In this document: piece after piece, positions 247 through 23,809 of the stretch
Layout: each line of letters opens with the position of its first letter
Numbering within the stretch: position 1 is the first letter of the stretch
Source: Octopus vulgaris
Lineage: Eukaryota
Length of the DNA: 64,000 nucleotides
Reading direction: 5' to 3'
NCBI GenBank assembly: GCA_951406725.2
Contig: OX597838.1
Coordinates: 30,628,001 to 30,692,000, forward strand
Position numbers and translations under genes: made by a program
The notes under the pieces: generated by a model
Seen by the model: only the letters and a program-made list of their open reading frames with translations
Database searches by the model: none
Told to the model about the DNA's origin: nothing

Positions 247-319
247 GGTTCCATGGTGTAGTGGTTATCACATCTGCTTAACACGCAGAAGGTCGTGAGT
301 TCGAAACTCGCTGGAACCT
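247..319 (+). tRNA. tRNA-Val(AAC)
   Basis: Cloverleaf: acceptor GGTTCCA/TGGAACC, anticodon arm TCTGC-TTAACAC-GCAGA, T arm GTGAG-TTCGAAA-CTCGC; A and B boxes; T-run downstream. Confidence 0.93.
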
Positions 320-399
320 AATTGTTTTATACATTATTTGCATTTAGTGCCACCACCCTCATTACTGTTGGTGAGGCAAGGGTTGCTTTTTCTCACCGA

Positions 400-692
400 C
401 TTGAACTTGGCATACCAATCACGAGCGGTTCTTTCAGCTATGGCATCCTCTCCATACACAGCACAAATGTCGCGAGCAGCTTTTGCAGCCTTAGAACCTT
501 GATTAAAGGTGTCGAAAATGCTCGTTTCTCTTAACTTGTCATTCCATTTTAATGATCTGGAAATAAACTAAAATTAACTAAAATTAACTAAAATTAACTA
601 GAAAAAAAAGATTCCAAAATGATTCAAAAATAGAATTCTTGAAAAAAATAAATTCCAAAATTTAATAAAACGGTGGGAAATTAGTTGCCAAC
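400..692 (-). mobile_element. Tc1/mariner transposon 5' fragment (degenerate)
   Basis: Homologous to the 7785-8091 fragment; partial TIR GTTGGCAACTAA and HTH-coding remnant. Confidence 0.7.
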
Positions 693-1083
693 TATTTTGA
701 CTCATTTGAAATATGGGGCGAAATATCAGAAACTTATTCGTGTATATCACTGGAACCTAACACTTTTAAAGTCATAAATTGCAATAGTAAAGCTGGACAT
801 ATGTCAAATAAGAAATTAGAGGGAAGTATTCAAATGGAGTGAGATAAATGATTTTCCCAAGATGACATTCAATGAAGTCGAAAATGGGATCTCATGATTG
901 CGAAGCCAACGATATAACTTATAGATTGGCTGAGCGTATAATAAGGGGTGTAAAGATCTAGACCCATCACAGCAATAACTGAGACAAAAGGTCGTGTACT
1001 ACAAGAACAACATCAACATTTCCAGTATCATGGGGTTGAATGCGGTAGAACCTTGTACAAGCAAAGAAAAAGAAAGTATAATT

Positions 1084-1156
1084 AGGTTCCAGTGAGTTTC
1101 GAACTCACGACCTTCTGCGTGTGAAGCAGATGTGATAACCACTACACCATGGAACC
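1084..1156 (-). tRNA. tRNA-Val(CAC)
   Basis: Reverse complement of the same body; loop TTCACAC. Confidence 0.92.
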
Positions 1157-1300
1157 AGTCGGTAACGAAACCCAAATGTTTCTTTAACAAATACAAATGG
1201 TAACTTATACACAGTTTACAGTTGATTTACTTATAAAAAGACAGTGGAATATAAGAAATGGTAATTTAAGAAGTATTTAGTTATATTTATTTATAGTGAG

Positions 1301-1312
1301 GGTTTCGAATCC
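1301..1312 (-). promoter_or_regulatory. Upstream B-box-like motif (GGATTCGAAACC) about 150 bp 5' of the minus-strand tRNA
   Basis: Motif recurs at a similar distance upstream of many tRNA copies on both strands; function inferred. Confidence 0.4.
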
Positions 1313-1567
1313 TGTTGGCGTTCACTGCACCTTCCATGTATTCAGATTATAAAATATTGGTCACTTCTTTTGGTGAAATGTACATAGAGTACATCCACTG
1401 GGCTCTCTTTAGAAATATCTGTCTGTGTGTCAATGCTAGAGAGAAGATATTGAGAGAAGATCAATATTCATTTTATCAATATTTATTGCAAAGATCAATA
1501 ATTATCAATAGATCAGGTCATTATTGTATAAACCCTCAATGCATAAAATGGAAAGTGAACACAACTA

Positions 1568-1579
1568 GGATTCGAAACC
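1568..1579 (+). promoter_or_regulatory. Upstream B-box-like motif (GGATTCGAAACC) 147 bp 5' of the tRNA at 1715
   Basis: Mirror of the 1301-1312 motif in the divergent spacer; function inferred. Confidence 0.4.
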
Positions 1580-1714
1580 CTATACAATTTTTGTTAATTC
1601 ACCGTTCCTGATACACCACTGTGCATTGAAAGCTGTGTACAAGATACAACTTAAATTGTGTGCAAGATACAACTTGTGTATGATAAAACAATATTTGAGA
1701 ACGGTGATGCATCC

Positions 1715-1787
1715 GGTTCCATGGTGTAGTGGTTATCACATCTGCTTAACACGCAGAAGGTCGTGAGTTCGAAACTCGCTGGAACCT
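1715..1787 (+). tRNA. tRNA-Val(AAC)
   Basis: Consensus body, loop TTAACAC. Confidence 0.93.
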
Positions 1788-2478
1788 GACTTTGGTCTAT
1801 ATATTTTGCTCGTACATTAACTCACCGATAGAATTACTGCTGGTACTGCAAGGTGTTCTGTTCCAGTGTTTGTGGCGCTCCACCACCCGGCCGCCACCAA
1901 TGAATATAATTAAACGCAGCCATGAATTAGAGTTTTCCACTTTGAAATTTCTCGTTCGAGACACTCAACATCGATTTCAGATTTTTGCACGAGTTCAGCA
2001 ATTTCGGGAAGGCGATAAATCGATGACATCGATCCCAGTGATTAGCAAGTGAGTATTTTATCGACCCCTAAAGGATAAACGGTAAAGCTGAACCTGGTGG
2101 CATTCGAACTCAGAACGTAAAGACAGACAAAATGCCGACAAGGATCTTGGTCCGGCGCAGGAACCATTGTGCGTCGGGTTATCACAGCCGCTTTGCTCAT
2201 AGAGAGTCACATGTTCGATACTCGCTTGAACATTTTTACATTATGATTTTGGTTTGGCTCCGTTAGGAATTATGTGGACAGCAGGTTACTACCTGTCAGG
2301 TATCCGTAAGTCTTCGGCAATCTTTCAAGTGCTTAAAACCCACCTGATAATCCTTGCTGTCTCTAAGAGACAAAGTTTCTTTAAGAACTCCGCAGCGCAT
2401 TCTATTCCAGTCTCCTTCATCCATTTGTCTACATTTTTGCTTACTGTTCTCAACGCACCATTATTATTATTATTATTA

Positions 2479-2540
2479 TTCCATGGTGTAGTGGTTATCA
2501 CATCTTCTTCACAAGCAGAGTTCGAAACTCGCTGGAATCT
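2479..2540 (+). pseudogene. tRNA-Val(CAC)-derived pseudogene
   Basis: 5' GG replaced by an (ATT)n run; variable-loop/T-stem deletion; disrupted anticodon stem. Confidence 0.8.
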
Positions 2541-2654
2541 CAAGATGTTTTTTATTAACATTGGGGGCTTCTAATTTCAGAAGAGTGGAGAAGCACTTTA
2601 TAAGACACAACTTATAATATAAATATAGTGATAATGGGTGACAGTACGGTATGT

Positions 2655-2693
2655 GATTCCATGGTGTAGTGGTTATCACATCTGCTTTACACG
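2655..2693 (+). pseudogene. tRNA-Val(TAC) 5' half fragment
   Basis: Matches the body only up to the anticodon loop. Confidence 0.75.
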
Positions 2694-3382
2694 AGAGTAG
2701 GGATTGATATATTTTGTTTGTTGTATTTTCTACAGTTGTTAGTGGCAATACTCGTGCAGTACTTGTCTTCATCGTCGGCTCTGAAGCTGGTGTTGTAACT
2801 GTTACAACTTCTGTGATCTCTTCTGTTGTATGGTGGTAGAGAAGACGGATCTTTTCTGTTGGGATGACATTTCTTTTTAATGTAAAATTGAGAGAAAATT
2901 TCCAGATTTGGTCCATTGATGTAATTTTTCACATTGAACCTGATGTTGTTATTCACTTATTCCAGAAAAATTTTAGAAAAATATTACATTTATAGGATGT
3001 TGCCAATTTTTTGTTGTCGACGAAATTTTGCAATGTCTCACTGAATGGATAAAAGGTGTTTAGTTATGTCCCTTTGTGTCATCCGTTGTTGATTTTGGCG
3101 GTGGTAGTGCTGGTGGTGGGGCGGCAGATCAATTACATCAACACTCGGCTTCCACCCACAGTACATATTTCATCGACCCCGAAGGGATGCATGGCAAAAT
3201 TCACGTCTTTGAAATTTGATCTGAGAACGCAAAGCGCCAAAATTAACGCCACTTTGCAGTTTCTTCGACACAGTAACAATTCGCTTTACAGTCCTATGTA
3301 ATAAAACTAACTACAACAAGAAGAAGAAGATAGAGAGGATGGTTGCGTCCAAAACAAGTAAACAAAGCCAAAAAGAAAACTT

Positions 3383-3455
3383 AGGTTCCAGTGAGTTTCG
3401 AACTCACGACCTTCTGCGTGTTAAGCAGATGTGATAACCACTACACCATGGAACC
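3383..3455 (-). tRNA. tRNA-Val(AAC)
   Basis: Consensus body, reverse strand. Confidence 0.92.
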
Positions 3456-3987
3456 AGTCGATAACCAAATATTGCTTTATATAAAGAAGTCGTGGGTTGT
3501 ACAGAGTTTAATGATGATTTACTTTAAGAAAAGACAATGGAATCTCAGAAATGGTAAATTAACAACAAAAAATTATTTATATTTATTTTCAATTCAGGTT
3601 TCGAATCCTTCTGGAGTTGACTTTAACCTCCACGTACTTAGGGTATCATGAAATATTGGTCGGTTGTTTTGGTCAAATGTACATCGAGTTTATCACCTGG
3701 GCTCTTTTTAGAAATATCTGTCTGTGTGTCAATGTGAGAGATTAAAATTAAAAGACAGTTCAATATTTATTAAGATCAATAATTACCAATAGAACAGGTC
3801 ATTATTGTATTGACCCCAGAGGATATAGAATGGAAAGTGAACTGCAGCAGGATTCGAGATGCTAAGCTCTCCTTGTTAACGTAACCATTTTTGATACTCC
3901 ACTGTGTTTTGAAAGCTAACTCTACATTAAACTCTGCACAAAATACTTGTGCATGACAAAACAATATCTGATTGAACAAAAGCATCT

Positions 3988-4060
3988 GGTTCCATGGTGT
4001 AGTGGTTATCACATCTGCTTAACACGCAGAAAGTCGTGAGTTCGAAACTCGCTGGAATCT
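3988..4060 (+). tRNA. tRNA-Val(AAC), variant
   Basis: Full length; substitutions in variable loop and 3' acceptor strand (TGGAATC). Confidence 0.8.
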
Positions 4061-4338
4061 AGCTGTTTTATATTTTAGTTTTATTTAGTGCCACCATCCT
4101 CATTACTGTTGGTGAGGCAAGGGTTGCTTTTTCTCTTGAACTTGGCATACCAATCACGAGCGGTTCTTTCGGCTATGGCACCCTCTCCATACACAGCACA
4201 AATGTCGCGAGCAGCTTTTGCGGCCTTAGAACCTTGACTAGAACCTGTTCTGTATAAATACTATAAATACCAGAAACTAATGACATCAATGCCTAACCCA
4301 ATAAAATCATTAACCTCAGGAGATGGAAAAAAAAAGCC

Positions 4339-4411
4339 AGGTTCCAGCGAGCTTCGAACTCACGACCTTCTGCGTGTAAAGCAGATTTGATAACCACTAC
4401 ACCATGGAACC
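4339..4411 (-). tRNA. tRNA-Val(TAC), variant
   Basis: Loop TTTACAC; substitutions in D stem and T loop. Confidence 0.78.
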
Positions 4412-4928
4412 ACCTGCTGCTCATGCCGCAAAAATTTTTCTTATCATATATAAGTGTTATCGATCTGGAGAACTAGCGATACAACAATGGACTCTTCTAT
4501 TATAGAATGAGGGGAGGAAAGCCCACGGAACGAAACCGCCGTTAGCCACAACATCATGAGCAACTATAAACCTTGTTTTCTTGCTTCCAGTGACGTTAAC
4601 ATATATACCAGTAATTATCTGTGACTAGAGTTTATCCACTGAACGCTCTTTAAAAATATCTGTCTGTGAGTCAAAGTTAGAGATAAAGAGTGAGAGAAGA
4701 CCAAATATCTATTGCAAAGACCAAAAAGTGCGAATGGAACTGGTCGTTATAAACTGGTCGTACATAAAATGGAAAGTGAACTTGAGCAGGATTCGAAAAC
4801 CTAAATACTTTTTGTTAATTCACCGTTCCTGATTCCCCGCAGTGTTTTGAAAGCTACCTCAACAGTAAACTCTGCGCAAGATACAACTAATCTACGATAA
4901 AACAATATTAGAGAATATTGAAGCATCT

Positions 4929-5001
4929 GGTTCCATGGTGTAGTGGTTATCACATCTGCTTAACACGCAGAAGGTCGTGAGTTCGAAACTCGCTGGAACC
5001 T
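4929..5001 (+). tRNA. tRNA-Val(AAC)
   Basis: Consensus body. Confidence 0.93.
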
Positions 5002-5030
5002 AATTGTTTTACATTTTGCTAGTATATAAT

Positions 5031-5652
5031 CATTTCTATTCTAGGCACAAGGCCCGAAATTTTGGTGGACGGGGGAAGTCAATTAGATCGACACCATTAT
5101 GCAACTGGTACTTAATTTATTGACCCCGAAAGGATGAAAGGCAAAGTCGACCTCGGCAAAATTTGAACTCAGAACGTAAAGACAGACAAAATATCTATTT
5201 CTTTACTACCCACAAGGGGCTAAACATAGAGAGGACAAACAAGGAGAGAAAAACGGATTAACCCTTCAGTGTTCACATTATTCTGCCAAAATTAATGTTT
5301 TTTTATCCACATTGCCTTGAACTAATCATGCATTATCTTGTAGCTATGAGATTTTGATGAGGTAGCTGTTAATTTTTAAAATGATATTGTAGGGTTGGTG
5401 TGAGAGACCAGATCTGGCCAGTTTGAACATAAAACAAGTTGAATACTTTTGGCCGGATATGGCCGGTTTAAATGCTAAAGGGTTAAGTCGATTATATTGA
5501 CCCAAGTGCGTAACTGGTACTTATTTAATCGACCCCGAAAGGATGAAAGGCAAAGTCGACCTCGGCAGAACTTGAACTCAGACCGTAGCGGCAGACGAAA
5601 TACCGCAAAACATTTCGCTCGGCATGCTAACGATTCCGCCAGCTCGCCGCCA
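5031..5652 (-). mobile_element. Tandem tRNA-derived SINE units (Nin/Deu-like core), interrupted by a MITE
   Basis: Repeated core GACCCCGAAAGGATGAAAGGCAAAGTCGACCTCGGC and B-box GAGTTCAAAT on the minus strand; boundaries approximate. Confidence 0.75.
5262..5482. mobile_element. piggyBac-like MITE
   Basis: TTAA on both sides (5258-5261, 5483-5486); imperfect TIRs CCCTTCAGTGTT / rc CCCTTTAGCATT; absent from paralogous SINEs near 19868 and 27009. Confidence 0.8.
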
Positions 5653-6090
5653 TATTTTGTTAGTACATAATACCACCACCCACATTACAGTTGGTATTGC
5701 AAATGTTGTTGTTGTTGGCAACGTTTGGTTCCAGTCGTTGTTGTTGTTACTGTTGTGTTGTAGAGTGGGCCCTCTCTGCCGTCACCACCGATGAGGACGG
5801 ACAGACTCAGCGATATATTAAAGCTCGACATTGGAAGATCTGCCAGTAGAGACAATTGGTTTCAAATTTGTGTACAAGGCCAGCAATTTCAGTGGGAGGA
5901 GATAAGTCGCTTACATCAAACCCAAAGCTCAACTGTTATGTATTTTATCGACCCCGGCGGAATTTGAACTCAGAACGTAAAGACTGACGAAATGCCGTGA
6001 AGCTTTTTACCCAGGGTGCTAACGAATCTGCGAAACTATCGCCTTACATCTTCTATATAATAAAACAATAATTAAGTACCGGTCGTGTCT

Positions 6091-6163
6091 GGTTCCATGG
6101 TGTAGTGGTTATCACATCTGCTTTACACGCAGAAGGTCGTGAGTTCGAAACTCGCTGGAACCT
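6091..6163 (+). tRNA. tRNA-Val(TAC)
   Basis: Consensus body, loop TTTACAC. Confidence 0.93.
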
Positions 6164-7014
6164 ACCATTTGTTTTCTGTTTTGTTTTGACCCTGGGGTTT
6201 CTAATACAATGGGAATGGAGGCTGATATATTTAGTTTCTTGTATTTGCTATAGTTATTGGTGCTAATACCCCACCTGCATTTCTCTTAATCGTCAACGCT
6301 TTTCTCTTAAGACGTAAATAGTAATATCAACCTCGGCCAGATTTTTAAAATAAGAAAGATCTTACTCAAAACAACACTCATTGAGGGCGACAGAGGACTT
6401 CATGATTGTGGAGCTAATTACGTAACTATGAACAGCTCTAATACATAATGAGTGGTTTAAAGATCCAGACCGCTGTATAACGGTTTCAATACTCTATTGA
6501 ATATTCTTTTCCCTTCATTGTGATATGAATATTCTCGAGAGATTGAAAAACTTAACAATCTCTGGTTTCTATTTCTGTCTCTTTTAAACCTCAGAGAGAA
6601 ACCTTTCTATGAAATGACGACGAAACCAATAGAAGTGAAGAGAGAGGGAAACTGTAGTGTTTCGGATTAAAGGTTTTCTAGTATTTACAATCCGTTAGAT
6701 TCTGCGTTGTTGTTTCTGATCAAACAGACATATAATTAAAGTATGTCAGCCATGACTCTCTCATCTTATTATCAAACAATCCATCCAAGACTTCAGTATC
6801 CAGTGGCCACCACTCTTATTTCTCTTCCAATTCATATTTAGTGAGTCTTAAAGTGTTTGATCCTAGATTTACGAACTGGTCACTGATATGTGACAACACG
6901 TGATAAGGCGGCATCTTCGATCAAAAATGTAGGGCGAGCTGCCGTTGTTTTTGAAGTTGATGCAAATATATCAACGTCTATTCCTATAAAAGTATAAGTC
7001 AAAAAGTAAACCTT

Positions 7015-7087
7015 AGGTTCCAGCGAGTTTCGAACTCACGACCTTCTGCGTGTTAAGCAGATGTGATAACCACTACACCATGGAACC
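7015..7087 (-). tRNA. tRNA-Val(AAC)
   Basis: Consensus body. Confidence 0.93.
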
Positions 7088-7631
7088 AGTTGATAGTCTG
7101 TTTTCAAATATTGCTTTATATAAAGAAGTTGTGGGTTATACAGTTTAATGATGATTTACTTTAAGAAAAGACATTGGAATCTCAGAAATGGTAAATTAAC
7201 AACAAAAAATTAGTTATATTTATTTTCAATTCAGGTTTCGAATCCTGCTGGAGTTGACTTTAACCTCCACGTACTCAGGGTATCATAAAATATTGGTAAA
7301 CTATTGGTTCTTTTGCTCAAATTTACATCGTGTTTAACACTTGGGCTCTTTTTAGAAATATCTGTCTGTGTGTTAATGTGAGAGATGAAAATTAAAAGAC
7401 AGTTCAATATTTATTAAGATCAATAATTACCAATAGAACAGGTCATTATTGTATTGACCCCTGAGGATACAGAATGGAAAGTGAACTGCAGCAGGATTCG
7501 AAATGCTAAGCTCTCCTTGTTAATGTAACCATTTTCGATACTCCACTGTGTTTTGAAAGCTAACTCTACATTAAACTCTGCACAAAATACTTGTGTATGA
7601 CAAAACAATATCTGATAGAGCGACAGCATCT

Positions 7632-7704
7632 GGTTCCATGGTGTAGTGGTTATCACATCTGCTTAACACGCAGAAGGTCGTGAGTTCGAAACTCGCTGGA
7701 ACCT
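7632..7704 (+). tRNA. tRNA-Val(AAC)
   Basis: Consensus body. Confidence 0.93.
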
Positions 7705-7784
7705 AAATGTTTTCTATTTTATTTGTATTTAGTACCACCACTCTCATTACTGTTGGTGAGGCAAGGGTTGCCTTTTCTCACCGA

Positions 7785-8091
7785 CTTGTACTTGGCATAC
7801 CAATCACGAGCGGTTCTTTCAGCCATGAAACCCTCTCCATACACAGCACAAATGTCGCTAGCAGCTTCTGCGGCCTTAGAACCTTGATTAATAGCAAAAA
7901 CAAGGAGGTGTTGAAAATGCTCGCTTTTCTTAACTTGACATTCCATTTTAATGATCTGGAAATAAACCAAAATTAACTAAAATTAACTAGAAAAATAAAA
8001 CAAGATTCCAAAATGATTCAAAAATAGAATTCTTGAAAAAAAAATTCTAAAATTTAAGAAAAACGGTGGGAAATTAGTTGCCAACCCAATA
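7785..8091 (-). mobile_element. Tc1/mariner transposon 5' fragment (left TIR plus N-terminal HTH)
   Basis: TA+TTGGGTTGGCAACTAA terminus; MECQVKK.EHF.HLL.FA...SKAAEAA.DIC.VYGE...AERTARDWYAK resembles the Mos1/SETMAR-type transposase HTH; no DDD domain. Confidence 0.82.
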
Positions 8092-8465
8092 TATGACTTA
8101 TTTGATATAAGGGGCGAAATATCAGTAACTTATTCACGTATATCACTGCAACCTAGCACTTTTAAAGTAAAAAATTGCAATATGTCAAATAAGAAATTAG
8201 AGAGAAGTATTCAAATGGCGTGAGGTAAATGATTTTCCCAAGGTGACATTCAGTGAAGACGAAAATGGGATCTCATGATTGCGAAGCCAACGATGTAACT
8301 TATAGACTGGCTGAGCGTACAACAAGGGGTGTAAAGATCTAGACCCATCACAGCAATAACTGAGACAAAAGGTCGTGTATTACAAGAACAACATCAGAAT
8401 TTCCAGTATCATGGGGTTGAATGCGGTAGAACCTTGTACAAGCAAAGGAAAAAAAAAGTATAATT

Positions 8466-8538
8466 AGGTTTCAGTGAGTTTCGAACTCACGACCTTCTGC
8501 GTGTGAAGCAGATATGATAACCACTACACCATAGAACC
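8466..8538 (-). tRNA. tRNA-Val(CAC), acceptor-stem variant
   Basis: GGTTCTA/TGAAACC acceptor with a mismatch; possibly non-functional. Confidence 0.7.
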
Positions 8539-9092
8539 AGGTGCTAACGAGACACAAATGTTTCTTTAACAAATACAAATGGTAACTTATACACAGTTTA
8601 CAGTTGATTTACCTATAAAAAGATAGTGGAATATAAGAAATGGTAATTTAAGAAGTATTTAGTTATATTTATTTATAGTGAGGGTTTCGAATCCTGTTGG
8701 AGTTCACTGCACCTTCCATGTATTCAGGAGATTATAAAATATTGGTCACTTCTTTTGGTCAAGTGTACATAGAGTACATCCACTGGGCTCTCTTTAGAAA
8801 TATCTGTCTGTGTGTCAATGCTAGAGAGAAGATATTGAGAGAAGATCAATATTTATTTTATCAATATTTATTGCAAAGATCAATAATTATCAATAGATCA
8901 GGTCATTATTGTATAAACCCTCAATGCATAAAATGGAAAGTGAACACAACTAGGATTCGAAACTGTATACAATTGTTGTTGATTCACCCTTTCTGATACA
9001 CCACTGAGCATTGAAAGCTGCTCCAACAGTAAATTGTGTATAAGATACAACTTGTGTATGATAAAGCAATATTTGAGAATTTTCAAGCATCC

Positions 9093-9165
9093 GGTTCCAT
9101 GGTGTAGTGGTTATCACATCTGCTTAACACGCAGAAGGTCGTGAGTTCGAAACTCGCTGGAACCT
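9093..9165 (+). tRNA. tRNA-Val(AAC)
   Basis: Consensus body. Confidence 0.93.
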
Positions 9166-9714
9166 GACTTTGCTTTATATATTTTGCTCGTACATTAACT
9201 CACCGCTCGCATTACTGTTGGTACTGCAAGGTGCAGCTGTTTTGTTCCAGTTGTTGTGGCGCTCCACCACCCGGCAACCACCAATGAATATAATTAAACG
9301 CAACCATGAATTAAAGGTTTCCATTATAAAATTTCTCGTTCGAGACACACAACGTTGTTTTCAGATTTTTGCACAAATTCAGTAATTTCGACGATCCCAG
9401 TGACTTGCAGGTGATTATTTTATCGACTCCGAAAGGATAAACGGTAAAGATGCACTTACAGATCAATTACATCAACACCCGGCTTCCACCCACAGTATAA
9501 ATTTCATCAACCCCCAAGGGATGCATGGCGAAATTGACGTCATTGAAATTTGACCTCAGAACACAAAGCGCCAAGAGTAACGCCACTTTGCAGTTTCTTC
9601 GACACAGTAACAATTCGCTTTACAGTCCTATGTAATAAAACTATACAACAGGAAGAAGAAGAAAGAGAGGATGGTTGAGTCCAAAACAAGTAAACAAAGC
9701 CAAAAACAAATCAT

Positions 9715-9787
9715 AGGTTCCAGCGAGTTTCGAACTCACGACCTTCTGCGTGTTAAGCAGATGTGATAACCACTACACCATGGAACC
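9715..9787 (-). tRNA. tRNA-Val(AAC)
   Basis: Consensus body. Confidence 0.93.
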
Positions 9788-10201
9788 AGACAAAAAAAAT
9801 TGGTCAAAAATATTGCTTATCATACAAAAGTTGTTTCTAATACCGTGAGTTTAATGTCGTGTTACTGCCAAACTACAAAGGTGTATCAGAATCGATACGT
9901 TAACAAGAAGTGTTTCTTTCTCGCCAGGGTTTCGAATCCTACTAGATTCCCTCAAACATCTATTGTTTCAGAGGTTCATAAAATAATGACTAGTTCTATT
10001 GGTAATTATTGGTCTTCTCAATAGATATTGATCTCATCGCAGTATCTATCTCTAACCTTGACACAGACACTAATGTTCAATGGAGAAACTCAAGCCACCG
10101 TATATTACTGGTATATATTTTAACGTCACTTTATTATGAAAACTCCAGACCGATTTCACTTACGTATGACCAGAGAAATATTGAGCAGTATAGCAGCGGA
10201 T

Positions 10202-10274
10202 GGTTCCATGGTGTAGTGGCTATCACGTCTGCTTCACACGCAGAAGGTCGCGAGTTCGAAACTCGCTGGAACCT
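10202..10274 (+). tRNA. tRNA-Val(CAC)
   Basis: G26/C50 subtype with a fully paired T stem GCGAG/CTCGC. Confidence 0.92.
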
Positions 10275-10455
10275 GCACATGTGCTGATTTTTAAAAATTT
10301 CTTTTTCCCCGCCAACGATATCATTTATTTTCGAATCTTGCAGGAGTTCACTTCACCGTTCATGCGTTCAGGAATATAAAAATAACGCCAAGTTCTATTC
10401 ATAATTATTGACCATCTCATTAAATTTTGATCTTTTCTCAGTATCTATCTTTACC

Positions 10456-10496
10456 GTTGTTGCTGTTGTTGCTGCTGCTTCTGCTGTTGTTGTTGT

Positions 10497-10531
<35 letters not shown>

Positions 10532-10551
10532 TTTTTGTTGTTGCTGCTGCT
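10456..10551. repeat. (GTT/GCT)n compound microsatellite
   Basis: Direct reading. Confidence 0.9.
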
Positions 10552-11062
10552 AATCCTTTCGTTAAAAAATATTTACTTGTAGATATTACCACCACCATCA
10601 TAATTGATTCTATTGCTATTGTTGTTGTTTTCAGAACGTTTTATTGTCGTTGATTTTACTGAGGTAGGGCGTGTCTGGATTGGCAGCAATCTCAGCCAAA
10701 GGACATAATTAAACACAGGCAGGTATTTTATCTGTCACATTAAAATTTCTTGGCAGAGAAAGGCCATGAATTTCAGAGAGGACGGCCAGTCGATAACACC
10801 GACCCCACTGCTCAAAGGGTACTTATTTTATCGACCCCGAAAAGATGAAAGGCAAATCCATCCTCGGTGGGATTTGAACTCTGAACGGACAAAATTCCGC
10901 AAAGCATTTTGCCTGGCGCGCTTTTCAGTTTAATCTGTTGCTTGTGTCGATTCTGCTGTTTCTGTTGTTTTGTGTAAATACAATAAATACAATAAACTAA
11001 TTACATCAATGCCTAACCCAATAAAATCATTAACCTCAGGAGATGAAAAAAAAAAAAAAGCT

Positions 11063-11135
11063 AGGTTCCAGCGAGTTTCGAACTCACGACCTTCTGCGTG
11101 TAAAGCAGATGTGATAACCACTACACCATGGAACC
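11063..11135 (-). tRNA. tRNA-Val(TAC)
   Basis: Consensus body. Confidence 0.93.
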
Positions 11136-11602
11136 AACTGCTGCTCGTAGCGCAAAAAGTTTTCTTATCATATATAAGTGAAATCGATCCGGAGAACTAG
11201 CTATAAAACAATGGACTGTTTTATTATAGAATGAACAAAACCGGTTGGTGAGAAAGCTTTCAGTGATGTTAAAATATATACCAGTAATTATCTGTGACTA
11301 GAGCTTATCCACTAACGCTCTTTAGAAATATCTGTCTGTGAGTCAAAGTTAGAGATAAAGAGTGGGAGAAGACGAAATATCTATTGCAAAGACCAAAAAG
11401 CGCGAATGGAACTGGTCCTTATAAACCCCTAAATACATAAAATGGAAAGTGAACTCGAGGAGGATTCGAAAACCTAAGTATTTTTTTGTTAATTCACCGT
11501 TCCTGATTCCCCGTAGTGTTTTGAAAGCTACCTCAACAGTAAACTCTGCGCAAGTTACATCTAATCTATGATAAAACAATATTTGAGAATACACAAGCAT
11601 CT

Positions 11603-11675
11603 GGTTCCATGGTGTAGTGGTTATCACATCTGCTTCACACGCAGAAGGTCATGAGTTCGAAACTCACTGGAACCT
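11603..11675 (+). tRNA. tRNA-Val(CAC)
   Basis: Full length; one T-stem substitution. Confidence 0.85.
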
Positions 11676-12520
11676 ACCATTTGTTTTGTTTTGTTTTGAC
11701 CCTCGGGGTTTCTAATACAATGGGAGTGGAGACTGATATATTTAGTTTTTTGTATTTGCTGTAGTTATTGGTGCTAATACCCCACCCGCATTTGTCTTCA
11801 TCGTCAACGCTTTTCTCTTAAGACATAAATATTCATATCGACCTAGGCCAGATCTAAAATAAGAAAGATCTTACTCAAAACAACACTCAGTGAGGGCAAA
11901 CAGAGGACTTCATGATTGTGGAGCTAATTACGTAACTATGAACAGCTCTAATACATAATGAGTGGTGTAAAGATCCAGACCGCTGTATAACGGTTTCAAT
12001 ACTCTATTGAATATTCTTTTCCCTTCATTGTGATATGAATATTCTTGAGAGATTGAAAAACTTAACAATCTCTGGTTTCTATTTTTCTCTCTTTTAAAAC
12101 TCAGAGAGAAACCTTCGCGTGAAATGGCGACGAAACTAAAAGAAGTAAAGAGAGGGAAACTGTAGTGTTCCGGATTAAAGGTTCTCTAGTATTTTCATTC
12201 CGTTAGATTCTGAGTTGTTGTTTCTGATCAAACAAACCTTTAAATAAAATATGTCAGCCATGATCATCTCATCTTATCAAACAATCCATCTTAGTCTTCA
12301 GTGTCCAGTTGCCTCCCGTCTTATTTCTCTTCCAATTCATATTTAGTGAGTCTTAAAGTGTTTGATCCTAGATTTACGAACTGGTCACTGATATGTGACA
12401 ACACGTGATAAGGCGGCATCTTCGATCAAAAATGTAGGGCGCGCTGCTGTTGTTTTTGAAGTTGATGCAAATATATCAACGTCTATTCATATAAAAAGTA
12501 TAACTCAAAATGTAAATCTT

Positions 12521-12593
12521 AGGTTCCAGCGAGTTTCGAACTCACGACCTTCTGCGTGTTAAGCAGATGTGATAACCACTACACCATGGAACC
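12521..12593 (-). tRNA. tRNA-Val(AAC)
   Basis: Consensus body. Confidence 0.93.
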
Positions 12594-13114
12594 TATTGAT
12601 AGTAGTTTATCAAATATTGCTTTATATAAAAAAGTTGTGGGTTGTACAGAGTTTAATAGTTATTTACTTTAAGACAGTGGAATTAACTAGAAAAAAAAGA
12701 AGTATTTAGTTATATTTATTTATAGTGAGGGTTTCGAATCCTGTTGAAGTTCACTGCACCTTCCATGTATTCAGGAGATTATAAAATACTGGTCACTTCT
12801 TTTGGTCAAGTGTACATAGAGTACATCCACTGGGCTCTCTTTAGAAATATCTGTCTGTGTGTCAATGCTAGAGAGAAGATATTGAGAGAAGATCAATATC
12901 AATTTTATCAATATTTATTGCAAAGATCAATAATTATCAATAGATCAGGTCATTATTGTATAAACCCTCAATGCATAAAATGGAAAGTGAACACAACTAG
13001 GATTCGAAACCCTATATAATATTTGTTAATTCACCGTTGCTGCTCTAACATTAAATTGTGTATAAGATACAACTTGTGTACGATAAAACAATATTTGAGA
13101 ATTTTGAAGCATCC

Positions 13115-13187
13115 GGTTCCATGGTGTAGTGGTTATCACATCTGCTTAACACGCAGAAGATCGTGAGTTCGAAACTCGCTGGAACCT
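13115..13187 (+). tRNA. tRNA-Val(AAC)
   Basis: Full length; variable-loop substitution. Confidence 0.88.
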
Positions 13188-13819
13188 GACTTTGGTCTAT
13201 ATATTTTGCTCGTACATTAACTCACTGCTTGCATTACTATTGGTACTACAAGGTGCTGCTGTTTTGTTCCAGTTGTTGTGGCGCTCCACCACCCGACCGC
13301 CACCAATGAATATAATTAAACGCACCCATGAATTAGAGTTTTCCACTTTGAAATTTCTCGTTCGAGACACTCAACATTGATTTCTGATTTTTGCACGAGT
13401 TCAGCAATTTGGGGAAGGCGATAAATCGATGACATCGATCCCAGTGATTATTTTATCGACCCCTAAAGGATAAACGGTAAAGCTGAACTTGGTGGCATTC
13501 GAACTCAGAACGTAAAGACAGACAAAATGCCGACAAGGATCTTGGTCCGGCGCAGGAACCATTGTGCATCGGGTTATCACAGCCGCTTTGCTCATATAGA
13601 GTCACGTGTTCGATACTCACTTGAACATTTTAACATTATTATTTTGGTTTGGTTCTGTTAGGAATTATGTGGACAGCAGGTTACTACCTGTCAGGTATCC
13701 GTAAGTCTTCGGCAATCTTTCAAGTGCTTAGAACCCACCTGATAATCGTTGCTGTCTCTAAGAGACAAAGTTTCTTTAAGAACACAAAAACGCATTCTAT
13801 TCCAGTCTCCTTCGTACGG

Positions 13820-13891
13820 GCTTCCATGGTGTAGTGGTTATCACATCTGCTTCACACGCAGAAGGTCGTGTGTTCGAAATCGCTGGAACCT
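13820..13891 (+). pseudogene. tRNA-Val(CAC), probable pseudogene
   Basis: G2C, broken T stem with a 1-nt deletion; usual upstream flank absent. Confidence 0.7.
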
Positions 13892-14622
13892 CCAGATGCT
13901 TTTTATTTACATTGGGGCTTCCAATTTTACGAGAGTGGGGATTGATAAATTTAGTTTGATGTATTTCCTACAGTTATTAGTGCCAATACCCCTCCAGTAT
14001 TTGACTTCATCGTCGGCTCTGAAGCTGGTGTTACTGATGGTGGTGTTGTAACTTTTACAACTTCTGTGATCTCTACTGTTGTATGGTGTTAGAGAAAACG
14101 GATCTTTTCTGTTGCCGTAACAGTTTTTTGAAATTTAAAATTGAGAGAAAATTTCCAGATTTGGTCCATTGATGTAATTTTTCACATAGAACCTGATGTT
14201 ATTATTCATTTATTCCAGAAAAATTTTAGAAAAATATTACATTAATAGGATGTTGCAAATTGTTTTGTTGTCGACGAAATTTTGCAATGTCTCTCTGAAT
14301 GGATAAAATGTGTTTAGTTATGTCCCTTTGTGTCATCCGTTGTTGGTTTTTGGCGGTGGTAGAGGGGCGGCAGATCAATTACATCAACACTCGGCTTCCA
14401 CCCACTGTACATATTTCATCGACCCCGAAGGGATGCATGGCAAAATTGACGTCTTTGAAATTTGATCCCAGAACGCAAAGCGCCAAGATTAACGTCACTT
14501 TGCAGTTTCTTCGACACAATAACAATTCGCTTTACAGTCCTATGTTATAAAACTAACAACAACAAGAAGAAAGAGAGGATGGTTGCGTCCAAAACAAGTA
14601 AACAAAGCCAAAAAGAAACCAC

Positions 14623-14695
14623 ATGTTCCAGCGAGTTTTGAACTCACGACCTTCTGCGTGTTAAGCAGATGTGATAACCACTACACCATGGAACC
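14623..14695 (-). tRNA. tRNA-Val(AAC), variant or pseudogene
   Basis: T loop TTCAAAA and C72A mismatch. Confidence 0.7.
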
Positions 14696-15241
14696 AGTTG
14701 ACGGCATTTTATCAGATCTTGTTTTATATAAAGAAGTTGTGGGTTGTACAGCGTTTAATGGTGATTTACTTTAAGAAAATACAATGGAATCTCAGAAATG
14801 GGAAATAAACAAGAAAAAATTAGTTATATTTATTTTCAATTCAGGGTTAGAATCCTGCTGGAGTTGACTTTAACCTCTACATACTCAGGGTATCACAAAA
14901 TATTGGTAAAATATTGGTTCTTTTGGTCAAATGTACATCCAGTTTATCACCTGGGCTCTTTTTAGAAATATCTTTCTGTGTGTCAATGTGAGAGATGAAA
15001 ATTAAAAGACAGTTCAATATTTATCAAGATCAATAATTACCAGTAGAACTGGTCATTATTGTACTGACTCCTGAGGATTCAGAATGGAAAGTGAACTGCA
15101 GCAGGATTCTAGATGCTAAGCTCTCCTTGTTAACGTAACCATTTTTGATACACCACCGTGTTTTGAAAGCTAACTCTACATTAAACTCTGCACAAAATAC
15201 TTGTGTATGACAAAACAATATCTGACAGAGCGACAGCATCT

Positions 15242-15314
15242 GGTTCCATGGTGTAGTGGTTATCACATCTGCTTAACACGCAGAAGGTCGTGAGTTCGAA
15301 ACTCGCTGGAACTT
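15242..15314 (+). tRNA. tRNA-Val(AAC)
   Basis: Full length; C72T. Confidence 0.85.
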
Positions 15315-15394
15315 AACTGTTTTATATTTTATTTGTATTTAGTGCCACCACCTTCATTACTGTTGGTGAGGCAAGGGTTGCTTTTTATCACCGA

Positions 15395-15730
15395 CTTGAA
15401 CTTGGCATACCAATCACGAGCGGTTCTTTCCGCTATGGCACCCTCTCCGTACACAGCACAAATGTCGCGAGCAGCTTTTGCGGCCTTAGAACCTTGACTA
15501 AAAGCAAAAAGAAGGAGGTGTCGAAAATGCTCGTTTTTCTTAACTTGACATTCCATTTTAATGATCTGGAAATAAATAAAAATTAAATAAAATTAACTAG
15601 AAAACATAAACAAGATTCCAAAATGATTCAAAAACAGAATTTTCGAAAAAAATTAACTCTAAACTTTAAAAACGCAATAAATTCCAAAATTAAAAGAACA
15701 AACGGCGGGAAATTAGTGCCAACCCAATAT
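15395..15730 (-). mobile_element. Tc1/mariner transposon 5' fragment
   Basis: ORF 15329-15556 encodes a mariner HTH; TIR remnant at about 15710-15730. Confidence 0.82.
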
Positions 15731-16120
15731 ATGACTCATTTGAAATATGGTGCGAAACATCCTTAACTTATTCGTGTATATCACTGGAACCTAACACTTT
15801 TAAAGTCATAAATTGCAATAGTAAAGCTGGACATATGTCAAATAAGAAAGTAGGGGAAATTATTCAAATGGCGTGAGATAAATGATTTTCCCAAGATGAC
15901 ATTCAGTGAAGTTGAAAATGGGATCTCATGATTGCGAAGCCAACGATATAACTTATAGACTGGCTGAGCGTACAATAAGGGGTGTAAAGATCTAGATCCA
16001 ATCACAGCAATAACTGAGACAAAAGGTCGTGTACTACAAGAACAACACCAGAATTTCCAGTATCATGGGGTTGAATGCGGTAGAACCTTGTACAAGCAAA
16101 GGAAAAAAAAAAGTATAATT

Positions 16121-16193
16121 AGGTTTCAGTGAGTTTCGAACTCACGACCTTCTGCGTGTGAAGCAGATATGATAACCACTACACCATAGAACC
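16121..16193 (-). tRNA. tRNA-Val(CAC), acceptor-stem variant
   Basis: Same variant as 8466-8538. Confidence 0.7.
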
Positions 16194-16739
16194 AGGTGCT
16201 AATGAGACACAAATGTTTCTTTAACAAATACAAATGGTAACTTATGCACAGTTTACAGTTGATTTACCTATAAAAAGACAGTGGAATATAAGAAATGGTA
16301 ATTTAAGAAGAAGTATTTAGTTATATTTATTTATAGTGAGGGTTTCGAATCCTGTTGGCGTTCACTGCACCTTCCATGTATTCAGGAGATTATAAAATAT
16401 TGGTCACTTCTTTTGGTCAAATGTATATAGAGTACATCCACTGGACTCTCTTTAGAAATATCTGTCTGTAGAGAGAAGATATTGAGAGAAGATCAATATT
16501 TATTTTATCAATATTTATTGCAAAGATCAATAATTCTCAATAGATCAGGTTATTATTGCATAAACTATCAATGCATAAAATGGAAAGTGAACACAACTAG
16601 GATTCGAAACCCTATGCAATTGTTGTTAATTCACCGTTTCTGATACACCACTGCGCATTGAAAGCTGCTCCAACAATAAATTGCGTATAAGATACAACCT
16701 GTGTATGATAAAGCAATATTTAAGAAAATTGAAGTTTCC

Positions 16740-16812
16740 GGTTCCATGGTGTAGTGGTTATCACATCTGCTTAACACGCAGAAGGTCGTGAGTTCGAAAC
16801 TCGCTGGAACCT
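16740..16812 (+). tRNA. tRNA-Val(AAC)
   Basis: Consensus body. Confidence 0.93.
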
Positions 16813-17383
16813 GACTTTACTTTATATATTTTGCTCGTACATTAACTCACCGCTCGCATTACTGTTGGTACTGCAAAGAGCGGCTGTTTTGTTCCAGTTG
16901 TTGTGGCGCTCCACCACCCGGCCGCCACCAAGGAATATAATTAAACGCAGCCCTGAAGTAAAGTTTTCCACTTTAAAATTTCTCGTTCGAGACACTCAAC
17001 GTTGGTTTCAGATTTTTGCACAAATTCAGCAATTTTGAGGAGGCGATAAATGGATGACATCGATCCCAGTGATTTGCAGGTGATTATTTTATCGACCCCG
17101 AAAGGATAAACGGTAAAGATGCACTTACAGATCAATTACATCAACACTCGGCTTCCACCCACTGTACATATTTCATCGACCCCAAAGGGATGCATGGCAA
17201 AATTCACGTCTTTGAAATTTGACCTCAGAATGCAAAGCGCCAAGAGTAACCCCACTTTGCAGTTTCTTCGACACAGTAACAATACGCTTTCCAGTCCTAT
17301 GTAATAAAATTATACAACAAGAACAAGAAGAAAGAGAGGAATGTTGAGTCCAAAACAAGTAAAGAAAGCCAAAAAGAAATCAT

Positions 17384-17456
17384 AGGTTTCAGCGAGTTTC
17401 GAACTCACGACCTTCTGCGTGTTAAGCAGATGTGATAACCACTACACCATGGAACC
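17384..17456 (-). tRNA. tRNA-Val(AAC)
   Basis: Full length; one acceptor mismatch (TGAAACC). Confidence 0.82.
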
Positions 17457-17865
17457 AGACCACAGAACGCTTTAATATTGCTTTATCATACAGAAGTTGT
17501 TTCTAATACAGAGTTTAATGTCGAGTTACTTTCAAACTACAGCGGAGTATCAGAATCGATACGTTAACAAGAAGTGTTTCTTTCTCGCCAGGGTTTCGAA
17601 TCCTACTAGATTTCCTGAAACGTCTATTGTTTCAGAGGTTCATAAAATAATGACTAGTTCTATTGGTAATTATTGGTCTTCTCAATAGATATCGATCTCA
17701 TCTCAGTATCTATCTCTAACATTGACGCAGACTGTAGTGTTCAATGGATAAACTCAAACCACCGTATATTACTGGTATATATTTTAACGTCACTAGATTA
17801 TGAAAACTCCAGACCGATTTCACTTACGTATGACCAGAAAAATATTGAGCGCTAAAGTAGCTGGT

Positions 17866-17938
17866 GGTTCCATGGTGTAGTGGTTATCACGTCTGCTTTA
17901 CACGCAGAAGGTCGCGAGTTCGAAACTCGCTGGAACCT
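17866..17938 (+). tRNA. tRNA-Val(TAC)
   Basis: G26/C50 subtype, loop TTTACAC. Confidence 0.92.
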
Positions 17939-18117
17939 GCGCATGTGCTGATTTTTTAAATTTCTTTTTCCCCGCCAACGATATCATTTAATTTCGAATC
18001 TTGCAGGAGTTCACTTCACCGTTCATGCGTTCAGGAATATAAAAATGACGCCAAGTTCTATTCATAATTGTTGACCATCTCAATAAATTTTGATCTTTTC
18101 TCAGTATTTATTTTTAC

Positions 18118-18232
18118 CGTTGTTGTTGCTGCTGCTGCTGCTGTTGTTGTTGTTGTTGTTGTTGTTGTTGCTTTTGCTGTTGTTGTTGTTGTAGTTGCTG
18201 CTGCTGCTGTTGTTGTTGTTGCTGCTGCTGCT

Positions 18233-18264
<32 letters not shown>

Positions 18265-18291
18265 TGCTGTTGTTGTTTTTGTTGTTGTTAT

Positions 18292-18323
<32 letters not shown>

Positions 18324-18424
18324 ATGTTGTTGCTGCTGCTGCTGCTTTTGTTATTGTTGTTGTTGTTGTTGTTGTTGCTGCTGCTGCTGCTGCGGCTGCC
18401 GCTGCTGCGGCTGCCGCTGCTGCT
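18118..18424. repeat. Expanded (GTT/GCT)n compound microsatellite
   Basis: About 300 bp; same site as the shorter tracts at 10456, 25570 and 31972. Confidence 0.92.
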
Positions 18425-18948
18425 AATTCTTTCATTAATAAAATTTTCCTTGTAGATATTACCCCCACCAGAAAAATCGTTTCTATTATAATTGCTGTTG
18501 GTTTCATAACGTTTCATTGTCGTTGTTTTTACTGAGGTAGGGCGTGTCTGGATTGGCAGCAATCTCAACAATGGACATAATTAAACACAAGCAGGTATTT
18601 AGTCTCTCACATTAACATTTCTTGGCAGAGAAAGGCCATGAATTTCAGAGAGGACGGCCAGTCGATTACACCGACCCCACGGCTCAAAGGGTATTTATTT
18701 TATCGACCCCGAAAAGATGAAAGGCAAAGTCATCCTCAGTGGGATTTGAACTCTGAACGTAAAGACGGACGAAATTCCGCAGAGCATTTTGCCTGGCGCG
18801 CTTTTCAGTTTAATCTGTTGCTTGTGTAGATGCTGCTGCTGCTGTTTCTGTTGTTTTGTGTAAATACAATAAATACAATAAACTAATGACATCAATGCCT
18901 AACCCAATAAAATCATTAACCTCAGGAGATGAAAAAAAAAAAAAAGCT

Positions 18949-19021
18949 AGGTTCCAGCGAGTTTCGAACTCACGACCTTCTGCGTGTAAAGCAGATATGA
19001 TAACCACAACACCATGGAACC
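18949..19021 (-). tRNA. tRNA-Val(TAC), variant
   Basis: Full length; D-arm substitutions. Confidence 0.75.
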
Positions 19022-19538
19022 ACCAGCTGCTTCTAGCACAAAAATTTTTCTTATCATATATAAGTGAAATCGATCCGGAGAACTAGCTATACAACAATGG
19101 ACTGTTCTATTATAGAATGAGGGGTGGAAAGCCCATGGAACAAAACCGCCGTTGACTACAACATCATGAGCAACTATAGAGCTTGCTTTCCTGCTTCCAG
19201 TGATGTTAAAATATATACCAGTAATTATCTGTGACTAGAGTTTATCCACTGAACGCTCTTTAGAAATATCTGTCTGTGAGTCAAAGTTAGAGATAAAGAG
19301 TGAGAGAAGATCAATATCTATTGCAAAGACCAAAAATTGCGAATGGAACTGGTCCTTATAAACCCCTAAATACATAAAATGGAAAGTGAACTCGAGCAGG
19401 ATTCGAAAACCTAAATACATTTCGTTAATTCCCCGTTCCTGATTCCCCGCAGTGTTTTGAAAGATACCTCAACTGTAAACTCTGCGCAAGTTACAACTAA
19501 TCTATGATAAAACAATATTTGAGAATATTCAAGCATCT

Positions 19539-19611
19539 GGTTCCATGGTGTAGTGGTTATCACATCTGCTTAACACGCAGAAGGTCGTGAGTTCGAAACT
19601 CACTAGAACCT
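19539..19611 (+). tRNA. tRNA-Val(AAC)
   Basis: Full length; one acceptor mismatch (TAGAACC). Confidence 0.82.
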
Positions 19612-19641
19612 AATTGCTTTACATTTTGCTAATATATAATC

Positions 19642-20040
19642 ATTTCTATTCTAAGCACAAGGCCTGAAATTTTGGTGGAAGTGGCGAGTCGATTAGATCG
19701 ACGCCAGTATGCAACTGGTACTTAATTTATCGACCCCGAAAGGATGAAAGGCAAAGTCGACCTCGGCGGAATTTGAACTCAAAACGTAAAGACAGACAAA
19801 ATATTTATTTCTTTACTACCCACAAGGAGCTAAACACAGAGAGGACAAACAAGGACAGACAAACGGATTACGTCGATTATATTGACCCCGTGAGTAACTG
19901 GTACTTATTTAGTCGCCCCCGAAAGGATGAAAGGCAAAGTCGGCCTCGGCGGAATTTGAACTCAGAACGTAAAGACATACGAAATACCACGAAGCATTTC
20001 GCCCGGCGTACTAATGTTTCTGCCAACTCGCCGCCATATT
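19642..20040 (-). mobile_element. Tandem tRNA-derived SINE units (Nin/Deu-like core)
   Basis: Paralog of 5031-5652 without the MITE. Confidence 0.75.
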
Positions 20041-20478
20041 TTGCTAGTACATAATACCACTACCCACATTACAGTTGGTATTGCAAATGCTGTTGTTGTC
20101 GGCGACGTTTGGTTCTAGTTGTTGTTGTTGTTGTTGTTACTATTGTGTTGTAGGGTGGGCCCTCTCTGCCGTCACCACCGATGTGGACGGACAGACTCAG
20201 CGATATATTAAAGTTGGACATTGGAAAATTTGTCAGTAGAGACAATTGGTTTCAAATTTGTGTACAAGGCCAGCAATTTCAGTGGGAGGAGATAAGTCGC
20301 TTACATCAAACCCAATGCTCAACTGGTATGTATTTTATCGGCCCCGGCAGAATTTGAACACTGAACGTAAAGACGGACGAATGCCGTGAAACTTTTTGCC
20401 CAGGGTGCTACGAATCTGCGAAAATGTCGCTTTACATCTTTTATATAATAAAACAATAATCAACCCCCGGTCGTGTTT

Positions 20479-20533
20479 GGTTCCATGGTGTAGTGGTTAT
20501 CACATCTGCTTCACACGCAGAAGGTCGTGAGTT
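20479..20533 (+). pseudogene. tRNA-Val(CAC), 3'-deleted
   Basis: Body stops at GAGTT in the T loop and joins the downstream T-rich flank. Confidence 0.85.
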
Positions 20534-21389
20534 GTTTTCTGTTTTGTTTTGACCCTGGGGTTTCTAAGACCCTGGGGTTTCTAATACAATGGGAATGGAG
20601 ACTGATATATTTAGTTTCTTGTATTTCCTATAGTTATTGGTGCTAATACCCCACCCGCATTTTTCTTCATCGTCAACGCTTTTCTCTTAAGACTTAAATA
20701 GTAATATCGACCTCGGCCAGATTTAAAATAAGAAAGATCTTACTCAAAACAGTACTCAGTGAGGGCGAACAGAGGACTTCATGATTGTGGAGATAATTAC
20801 GTAACTATGAACAGCTCTAATACATAATGAGTGGTGTAAAAATCAAGACCGCTGTATAACGGTTTCAATACTCTATAGAATATTCTTTTCCCTTCATTGT
20901 GATATGAATATTCTTGAGAGATTGAAAAACTTAACAATCTCTGGTTTCTATTTCTCTCTCTTTTAAAACTCAGAGAGAAACCTTCGCATGAAATGGCGAC
21001 GAAACTAAAAGAAGTGAAGAGAGGGAAACTGTAGTGTTTCGGATTAAAGGTTCTCTAGTATTTTCATTCCGTTAGATTCTTAGTTGTTGTTTCTGATCAA
21101 ACAAACCTTTAAATAAAATATGTCAGCCATGATCATCTCATCTTATCAAACAATCCATCCAAGACTTCAGTATCCAGTGGTCACCACTCTTATTTCTCTT
21201 CCGATTCATATTTAGTGAGTCTTAAAGTGTTTGATCCTAGATTTACGAACTGGTCGCTGATATGTGGCAACACGTAATAATGCGGCATCTTTGATCAAAA
21301 ATGTAGGGCGCGCTGCTCTTGTTTTTGAAGTTGATGCAAATATATCAACGCCTTTTTCCTATAAAAGTATAACTCAAAATGTAAAACCT

Positions 21390-23554: not shown

Positions 23555-23809
<255 letters not shown>

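Follow-up and report, generated by a model that had tools for sequence, protein, structure and literature searches.

Can a cytosolic valine tRNA dispense with A at the discriminator position N73? The question was raised by the window analysed here, the whole stretch of 64,000 bases at C25:30628001-30692000 of the 2.8-Gb Octopus vulgaris genome, which carries an array of valine tRNA genes ending in U73. According to a review of 2023, A73 is a strong, conserved and universal identity determinant of tRNA-Val, and A35, C36 and C38 are valine determinants as well (PMC9976931). In bacteria, A73 is reported for 187,250 of 187,270 tRNA-Val genes, or >99.9% (PMC6097841), and the same base is listed for the reference tRNA-Val of both Drosophila and Arabidopsis (supplement of PMC7827920) and for the planarian tRNA-Val genes (Table S1 of PMC7962491). 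A73 is described as crucial for editing by bacterial ValRS (PMC11295145). No obvious contact of ValRS with the discriminator was suggested by the ValRS-tRNA structure, and A was regarded as a weak element (PMC7749636); when wheat-germ ValRS was given a viral tRNA-like structure, valylation was unaffected by A73 (PMC9976931). No report of U73 in an animal cytosolic tRNA-Val was found in a literature search that had most subscription journals and supplements outside its scope, and U73 sequences may stand unremarked in tRNA databases. The accessible parts of the supplements of PMC2770079 and PMC8824774 contain no tRNA-Val sequences.

Valine tRNA genes of the window

By ARAGORN, 75 tRNA-Val genes were detected in the window, with 42 AAC, 19 CAC and 14 TAC anticodons, and the Rfam scan gave 74 RF00005 matches over the gathering score and no other family. 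The cluster extends beyond the window, covering 130 kb of C25 from 30.581 to 30.710 Mb. The gene studied in detail represents the commonest sequence of the array, as 22 of the 75 ARAGORN calls are identical at the same length and two more were called one base longer; its predicted fold is cloverleaf-like (z -2.91). Its features are listed in the table below, together with the two copies of the window that end in C73. Two further intact C73 CAC copies, similar to that at 63132, are located just past the window edge.

Features of the tRNA-Val array in the window (positions count from the first base of the window)
Feature	Position	Strand	Basis
tRNA-Val(AAC) gene, 73 nt	247..319	+	ARAGORN; Rfam RF00005 62.2 bits
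Acceptor stem 5' strand GGTTCCA, pairs with 312-318	247..253	+	sequence; fold
Anticodon AAC at 280-282 plus A35, C36, C38	280..284	+	ARAGORN; positions 35-38 invariant, 72/72 genes
T arm, stem GTGAG/CTCGC, A52-U62 pair common to tRNA-Gln	295..311	+	sequence; comparison
B box	299-307	+	inside T arm of the 247-319 gene
Discriminator N73 = T (U73)	319..319	+	sequence; column counts
T4 run, likely RNA polymerase III terminator	325..328	+	sequence; function inferred
Array of 75 tRNA-Val genes, both strands	247..63707	.	ARAGORN
AAC copy with C73, one acceptor mismatch (G68-to-A)	29985..30057	-	sequence
CAC copy with C73, intact stems	63132..63204	+	sequence

Among the 72 window genes of standard geometry, all stems are paired in 56, and both the NAC anticodon of tRNA-Val and the determinants A35, C36 and C38 are present in every one. 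The positions of A box and B box are conserved, and a run of four or more T is located within 30 bases downstream of 74 of the 75 genes, so that the context of a Pol III gene is present and activity may be expected. An AT-rich motif (TATGATAAA...CAATATTT-like) was observed about 20-40 bases upstream of most window genes, the remaining flank being diverged; this shared motif is a possible TATA-like Pol III element.

At N73, the 72 standard genes carry T in 70 cases and C in two (29985 on the minus strand and 63132 on the plus strand). Three non-standard genes, 13819 and 35334 (each with a one-base T-arm deletion) and 46521 (diverged), were also found by eye to end in T. In total, U73 is present in 73 of 75 genes and C73 in two, and the A73 of cytosolic tRNA-Val in none. 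The preliminary description of this DNA had noted that nearly every copy ends in TGGAACC-T, with C at 29985 and 63132. Both the U73 and the two exceptions were confirmed, but the exact ending is shared by only 56 of the 75 genes.

Variation at N73 (0.18 bit) is comparable to that of the gene body, while the next base varies by 1.13 bit; N73 is thus as invariant as the gene with the following base free, indicating that U73 is more than chance. In 2174 gene pairs with upstream flanks more than 35% different, which are not independent of one another, gene sites differ by 4.7% and N73 differs in 6.2% of the pairs, whereas the next two bases differ in 48.9% and 67.4%. Gene conversion inside the cluster could also hold N73 uniform.

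As to growth of the cluster, a segmental duplication of 10 kb (96.4% identity) was recognized between 5485-15638 and 27012-37139 of the window, nested in older duplications of 87-93%, indicating that the cluster grew stepwise. Copies with near-identical flanks may differ in the wobble base, as for 8466/16121/29985 (CAC/CAC/AAC) and 6091/27618 (TAC/CAC). These differences point to recent anticodon switching on one body, and position 34 is the most variable site among the window genes. The window also contains a LINE-type retroelement, with endonuclease, reverse transcriptase and zf-RVT in three overlapping frames, at 40858-44371 (plus strand) and 38625-39548. Its 3' part was duplicated together with a tRNA gene (38663-41055 and 43486-45879, 99.4% over 2394 bases), and the start of the duplicate is 7 bases away from the tRNA gene 38584-38656, at the altered 5' end of that gene. 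This arrangement could be due to tRNA-adjacent insertion, recent duplication or an assembly join.

Valine decoding in the octopus genome

A pattern of D arm plus anticodon arm gave 168 exact matches in the genome; of the 68 beyond the first 100, all but one (67) fall in the window or directly behind it. The census, with patterns that presuppose a D arm or variable loop of the animal type, comprises 198 Val-like genes from the window, the cluster flanks and dispersed places. Counting all copies, N73 of the AAC genes is T in 87, C in two and A in one decayed copy; that of the TAC genes is T in 52 and A in nine; and that of the CAC genes is T in 40, C in four, G in two and A in one, although both G73 copies and one C73 copy are deleted or truncated and were read out of register. 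Stems are broken or other defects are present in 70 of the 198. All stems are paired in the other 128, which include 123 U73, three C73 and two A73 genes: 66 U73 and no A73 for AAC, 35 U73 and one A73 for TAC, and 22 U73, three C73 and one A73 for CAC.

The intact A73 TAC gene, at C25:30586421, has the cluster body. The A73 tRNA-Val(CAC) gene, at C20:28615632 (L037 433-505, minus strand), is canonical, stands alone in 19 kb, and shows six differences from the A73 CAC gene of another contig (L126); the fact that one copy has been kept hints at a special role. It was also the only canonical tRNA-Val among 15 matches with Val-type loops and a different T stem. The other A73 cases are eight TAC copies with U-U at pair 7:66 in a tandem of 168-bp units. 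This tandem, at C25:30.6137-30.6178 Mb (L023), consists of about 19 head-to-tail Val(TAC) genes with a spacing of about 168 bp, of which 15 carry U7-U66 and eight of these A73. No intact A73 AAC gene was found among the 79 AAC pattern matches genome-wide, all of which were inspected, a search that a divergent or unassembled AAC or GAC gene could escape.

Dispersed Val copies were identified on C5, C11, C19, C20, C23 and C25. In these, acceptor pairs 5:68, 6:67 and 7:66 are changed on both sides with U73 kept, which points to selection on the folded tRNA. As a control, tRNA-Ile(AAT) gave 50 matches; the 10 loci that were read contain nine distinct genes, eight with A73 and one decayed. For five solitary Val copies (C2:47279539, C7:29287356, C7:116722753, C22:22456943 and C23:13572572), a common repeat starts right at the T run, as if repeat and tRNA copy had been inserted together.

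As judged from these sequences, the U73 genes would encode the regular, functional cytosolic valine tRNAs of Octopus, whose ValRS would depend on the anticodon and tolerate U73, a reading to which we assign a probability of about 0.8. The precursor would be made by Pol III, processing would leave U73 in place, and CCA would be added after it; ValRS would then recognize A35, C36 and C38 and tolerate U at position 73. Addition of CCA to U73 was about threefold slower than to A73 in a human test system (PMC4477674). We infer expression of the genes, charging with valine and tolerance by ValRS, and likewise an origin of the U73 family before the cephalopods, which would have been followed by cluster expansion and by anticodon switching that placed AAC, CAC and TAC on one body.

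Eukaryotes read the codons GUU and GUC with an AAC (I34) tRNA. As no intact A73 AAC gene was found, the U73 genes appear indispensable; unless edited, U73 would carry the bulk of valine decoding. Reading by a relaxed ValRS, one of the possibilities raised in the preliminary description, is therefore supported. In an alternative reading, the U73 array would be a repeat that is silent or does not serve translation, and valine would be delivered through a few A73 genes or through others that escaped the search. This would agree with the 70 defective copies among 198, with the enlargement of the cluster by segmental duplication, and with the presence of two A73 genes, a canonical CAC gene and an intact TAC gene. 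However, neither of these A73 genes reads GUU or GUC efficiently by the established decoding rules, and two ValRS exons contain 13 Val codons, nine of which are GUU or GUC. In addition, dispersed copies show paired stem changes and end in T runs, and near-identical genes (0-1 differences) occur in other animals. We give a silent array only a small chance.

Likewise, the universal A73 rule would be kept if U73 were swapped for A after transcription, by 3' trimming and refilling, so that ValRS sees A73. Repair of the discriminator is known in animal mitochondria, including that of squid tRNA-Tyr. U73, however, stays unedited in cytosolic tRNA-Gln, tRNA-Thr and tRNA-Cys, and the octopus genes have no overlapping element that would force editing. 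Moreover, conservation of the encoded T matches that of the gene body and extends across distant animals, which is unexpected for a base to be removed, and the chance left for such 3' editing is slim.

The genome contains a cytosolic ValRS exon with 94% identity over 93% of its length to an Octopus sinensis ValRS, which places the animal in Octopus; a second ValRS-like locus, on C1, probably encodes the mitochondrial enzyme. Alignment of 84 animal ValRS proteins revealed four cephalopod and four spiralian columns that differ from vertebrates and ecdysozoans, mostly by conservative changes, and none of these could be linked to the acceptor end. An old tolerance thus fits better than a remodelled enzyme, although this is not proof. 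From the sequences, it seems likely that the ValRS of octopus and of the other invertebrates with U73 does without the A73 identity base.

In comparison with canonical cytosolic tRNA-Val of human, silkworm, Drosophila, Arabidopsis and planarian, and with that of bacteria, the octopus genes share the 73-nt cloverleaf, the NAC anticodon with A35, C36 and C38, the U13-U22 combination, the five-base variable loop and G1-C72. They differ in carrying U instead of A at N73 and in having AAC, CAC and TAC all on one body. Two known systems resemble the proposed one. For the viral valine tRNA-like structures (TYMV, Virgaviridae; PMC7749636), eukaryotic ValRS uses the anticodon loop and tolerates a non-A discriminator, as charging of the octopus tRNAs would require; in them, the pseudoknotted end of a viral RNA carries A73 or C73, whereas the octopus genes are true cellular tRNA genes with U73. 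For tRNA-Thr (PMC6097841, PMC11295145), N73 is A or U by lineage in bacteria and eukaryotes and the synthetase is relaxed, as proposed here for octopus valine; that class II system, however, is already documented, whereas valine is listed as invariant.

Valine decoding that rests on U73 in octopus, within a family also present in other invertebrates, would represent a clean natural exception to the stated A73 rule, though the surprise is tempered by the weak N73 sensitivity already known for plant ValRS. The genome also offers matched pairs of A73 and U73 genes, for CAC and, on a shared body, for TAC. With these, one could ask what the discriminator does in charging and editing by eukaryotic ValRS, in the addition of CCA, and for deacylases that prefer pyrimidines, such as eukaryotic DTD. 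The octopus case also warns that invertebrate tRNAs may be mislabelled when identity rules derived from vertebrates, insects, yeast and plants are applied to them.

Relation to tRNA-Gln

The acceptor end had also been described as Gln-like, on the basis of human sequences. Vertebrate tRNA-Val(TAC) may also start with GGTTCCA, a point on which no argument here depends. For human and silkworm, PMC9023262 gives the acceptor as GGYYCCA for Gln and GUUUCCG for Val, and this listing accounts for the first impression of a Gln-like end. In the octopus genome, the Gln pattern gave 72 matches, corresponding to about 72 separate Gln-type genes. Those read from 30 of the 72 matches end in U and have mostly GGTTCTA or GGTCTCA as acceptor. 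The Val genes thus carry both U73 and an acceptor of the GGYYCCA type as in tRNA-Gln, with the octopus Gln genes mostly differing at pair 6:67 or pairs 4-5.

When the 247-319 gene was aligned with a Gln gene of the same genome, the acceptor/T half agreed at 27 of 34 sites and the D/anticodon half at 19 of 39; with the canonical A73 Val gene, the agreement was 23 of 34 and 30 of 39, respectively. At the 27 stem sites of acceptor and T arms, 20-22 agree with Gln, 18 with the A73 Val gene, up to 20 with Thr genes of other animals and up to 26 with U73 Val genes of other animals, so that the top half is nearer to some Val genes than to Gln (22/27). Animal cytosolic tRNA-Gln shares with the octopus Val genes U73, G9, A52-U62 and a similar acceptor stem, but D loop, anticodon stem and variable loop differ, pair 49:65 is reversed, and U35 and G36 are missing from octopus Val, which has A35 and C36 in 72 of 72 genes. 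The Gln likeness of the acceptor/T half is real but modest. It does not extend to the D/anticodon half, and the human-type Gln acceptor that had been named is not the usual one among the Gln genes read from this genome.

The resemblance of the acceptor end, including U73, might suggest that these tRNAs are charged with glutamine, which would then be inserted at valine codons. In E. coli, however, GlnRS needs U35 and G36 (PMC9976931), and the lack of both bases makes glutamine charging very unlikely on these E. coli data. Furthermore, the ValRS exons of the genome keep valine codons where the proteins of other animals have valine, and the Gln-type genes exist in their own right. We regard the chance of glutamine charging as close to nil. 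Poorly charged or mischarged tRNAs, as had been considered at first, are not supported either: the genes are conserved and are without U35, a main determinant for GlnRS in the same source (PMC9976931).

A Val/Gln chimera had been proposed as well. As an event in octopus it is not supported: the family is also present in DNA of rotifers and of other animals, and among the matches listed from other organisms, 15 of the 58 intact U73 genes show neither of two Gln-like marks. A chimera might instead be old, with the acceptor and T arms of a tRNA-Gln joined to the D/anticodon half of a tRNA-Val before the split of rotifers and molluscs, the product still being a valine tRNA today. For this it may be argued that in the acceptor/T half no other non-Val isotype comes nearer than Gln, which agrees at 22 of 27 stem sites where the A73 Val gene agrees at 18 of 27, that G9, A52-U62 and U73 are common to Gln and octopus Val, and that the Gln and Val acceptors differ in the survey (PMC9023262). 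Thr genes of other animals, however, reach 20 of 27, pair 49:65 is G-C in octopus Val and C-G in Gln, and the A73 gene of the same genome begins with GGTTCC, too. Among the matches listed, A52-U62 is present in only 20 of the 58 intact U73 Val genes elsewhere, and 15 of the 58 lack both A52-U62 and G9. These 58 genes have 25 different acceptor 5' strands. The T stems can be arranged in single steps (CCCGG, CCGGG, GCGGG, GCGAG), with U73 present at every one of them. As U73 is found on many stems that are not Gln-like, a chimera is not needed, and an old chimera is unlikely. The octopus U73 Val genes are probably not hybrids with glutamine tRNA. They represent a genuine and conserved departure, in an otherwise ordinary tRNA, from a rule stated to be universal, and are no chimera in any recent sense.

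U73 genes of other organisms and possible selection

A metagenome scan, in which a base other than A was required at position 73, gave at least 127 stretches, a number without an A73 denominator. Among the matches listed, at least 79 distinct genes were recognized on 125 loci: 70 with U73, one with C73, two with G73 (one out of register) and six A73 neighbours. The U73 genes, at least 70, include 32 TAC, 18 CAC, 17 AAC and three GAC genes, and the octopus T stem is common to many of them. Four types of dispersed octopus genes differ by 0-1 base, positions 34 and 73 aside, from genes on other contigs, and two of the latter recur on 15 and 16 loci among the matches listed. In an alignment of 32 genes, with hand-picked rows that favour the outcome, 99.8% of the cells pair, two-sided changes occur at 14 of the 20 pairs, and U73 is present in 31. 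In one locus (L124), a U73 Val(CAC) gene adjoins a BBS4 fragment with bdelloid rotifers, Rotaria and Adineta, as best named relatives (66-87% identity). By this similarity it is identified as bdelloid rotifer DNA, and it is the sole metagenome locus given a taxon.

Among invertebrates, U73 is by no means a rarity. The idea of U73 as an octopus-only novelty was ruled out by the metagenome U73 genes. That all Spiralia have U73 was also ruled out, the planarian Val genes ending in A in the Table S1 rows of PMC7962491. Since U73 is present in rotifer and other DNA and absent from planarian, Drosophila and Arabidopsis, its distribution appears old and patchy, with either one early gain and reversals or several gains behind it.

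The non-A discriminators are nearly all U (70 U, one C and two G of at least 73 non-A genes among the matches listed). We tentatively consider, as a doubtful proposal, that several animal lineages rewrote the acceptor-end code for valine and that U73 was selected because it shields tRNA-Val(IAC) and tRNA-Val(UAC) from IleRS. Both share positions 34-35 with isoleucine tRNAs, and IleRS reads A73 and hydrolyses Val-tRNA; the CAC isoacceptor, having no Ile twin, would be free to keep A73. The A73 of octopus tRNA-Ile(AAT) is a hint in this direction. Where both kinds co-occur, A73 is on CAC in octopus, in L120, L132, L133 and L134, in L126 and in L148; in L217, A73 is on a CAC-like gene and on a damaged TAC gene. 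Against shielding, at least 18 distinct CAC genes carry U73 among the matches listed, the pattern is reversed in L211, the cases of co-occurrence are related by descent, and the 84 animal ValRS proteins revealed no matching change.

Some of the contigs deserve mention for their gene content. L120, L132, L133 and L134, of eukaryote origin, carry about 20 different tRNA genes in 3-4 kb, with U73 on AAC and A73 on CAC. G34 in the valine box is rare in eukaryotes; four GC-rich, eukaryote-like contigs (L119, L122, L150 and L208) carry U73 tRNA-Val(GAC). The bacterial pattern scan gave four stretches, again without a denominator, and that of the viral collection gave two non-A and no A73 matches. 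Six giant-virus-like contigs (L149, L156, L165, L166, L245 and L246) carry U73 Val(TAC), with intronless eIF5, kinase and SfsA-like open reading frames beside tRNA clusters.
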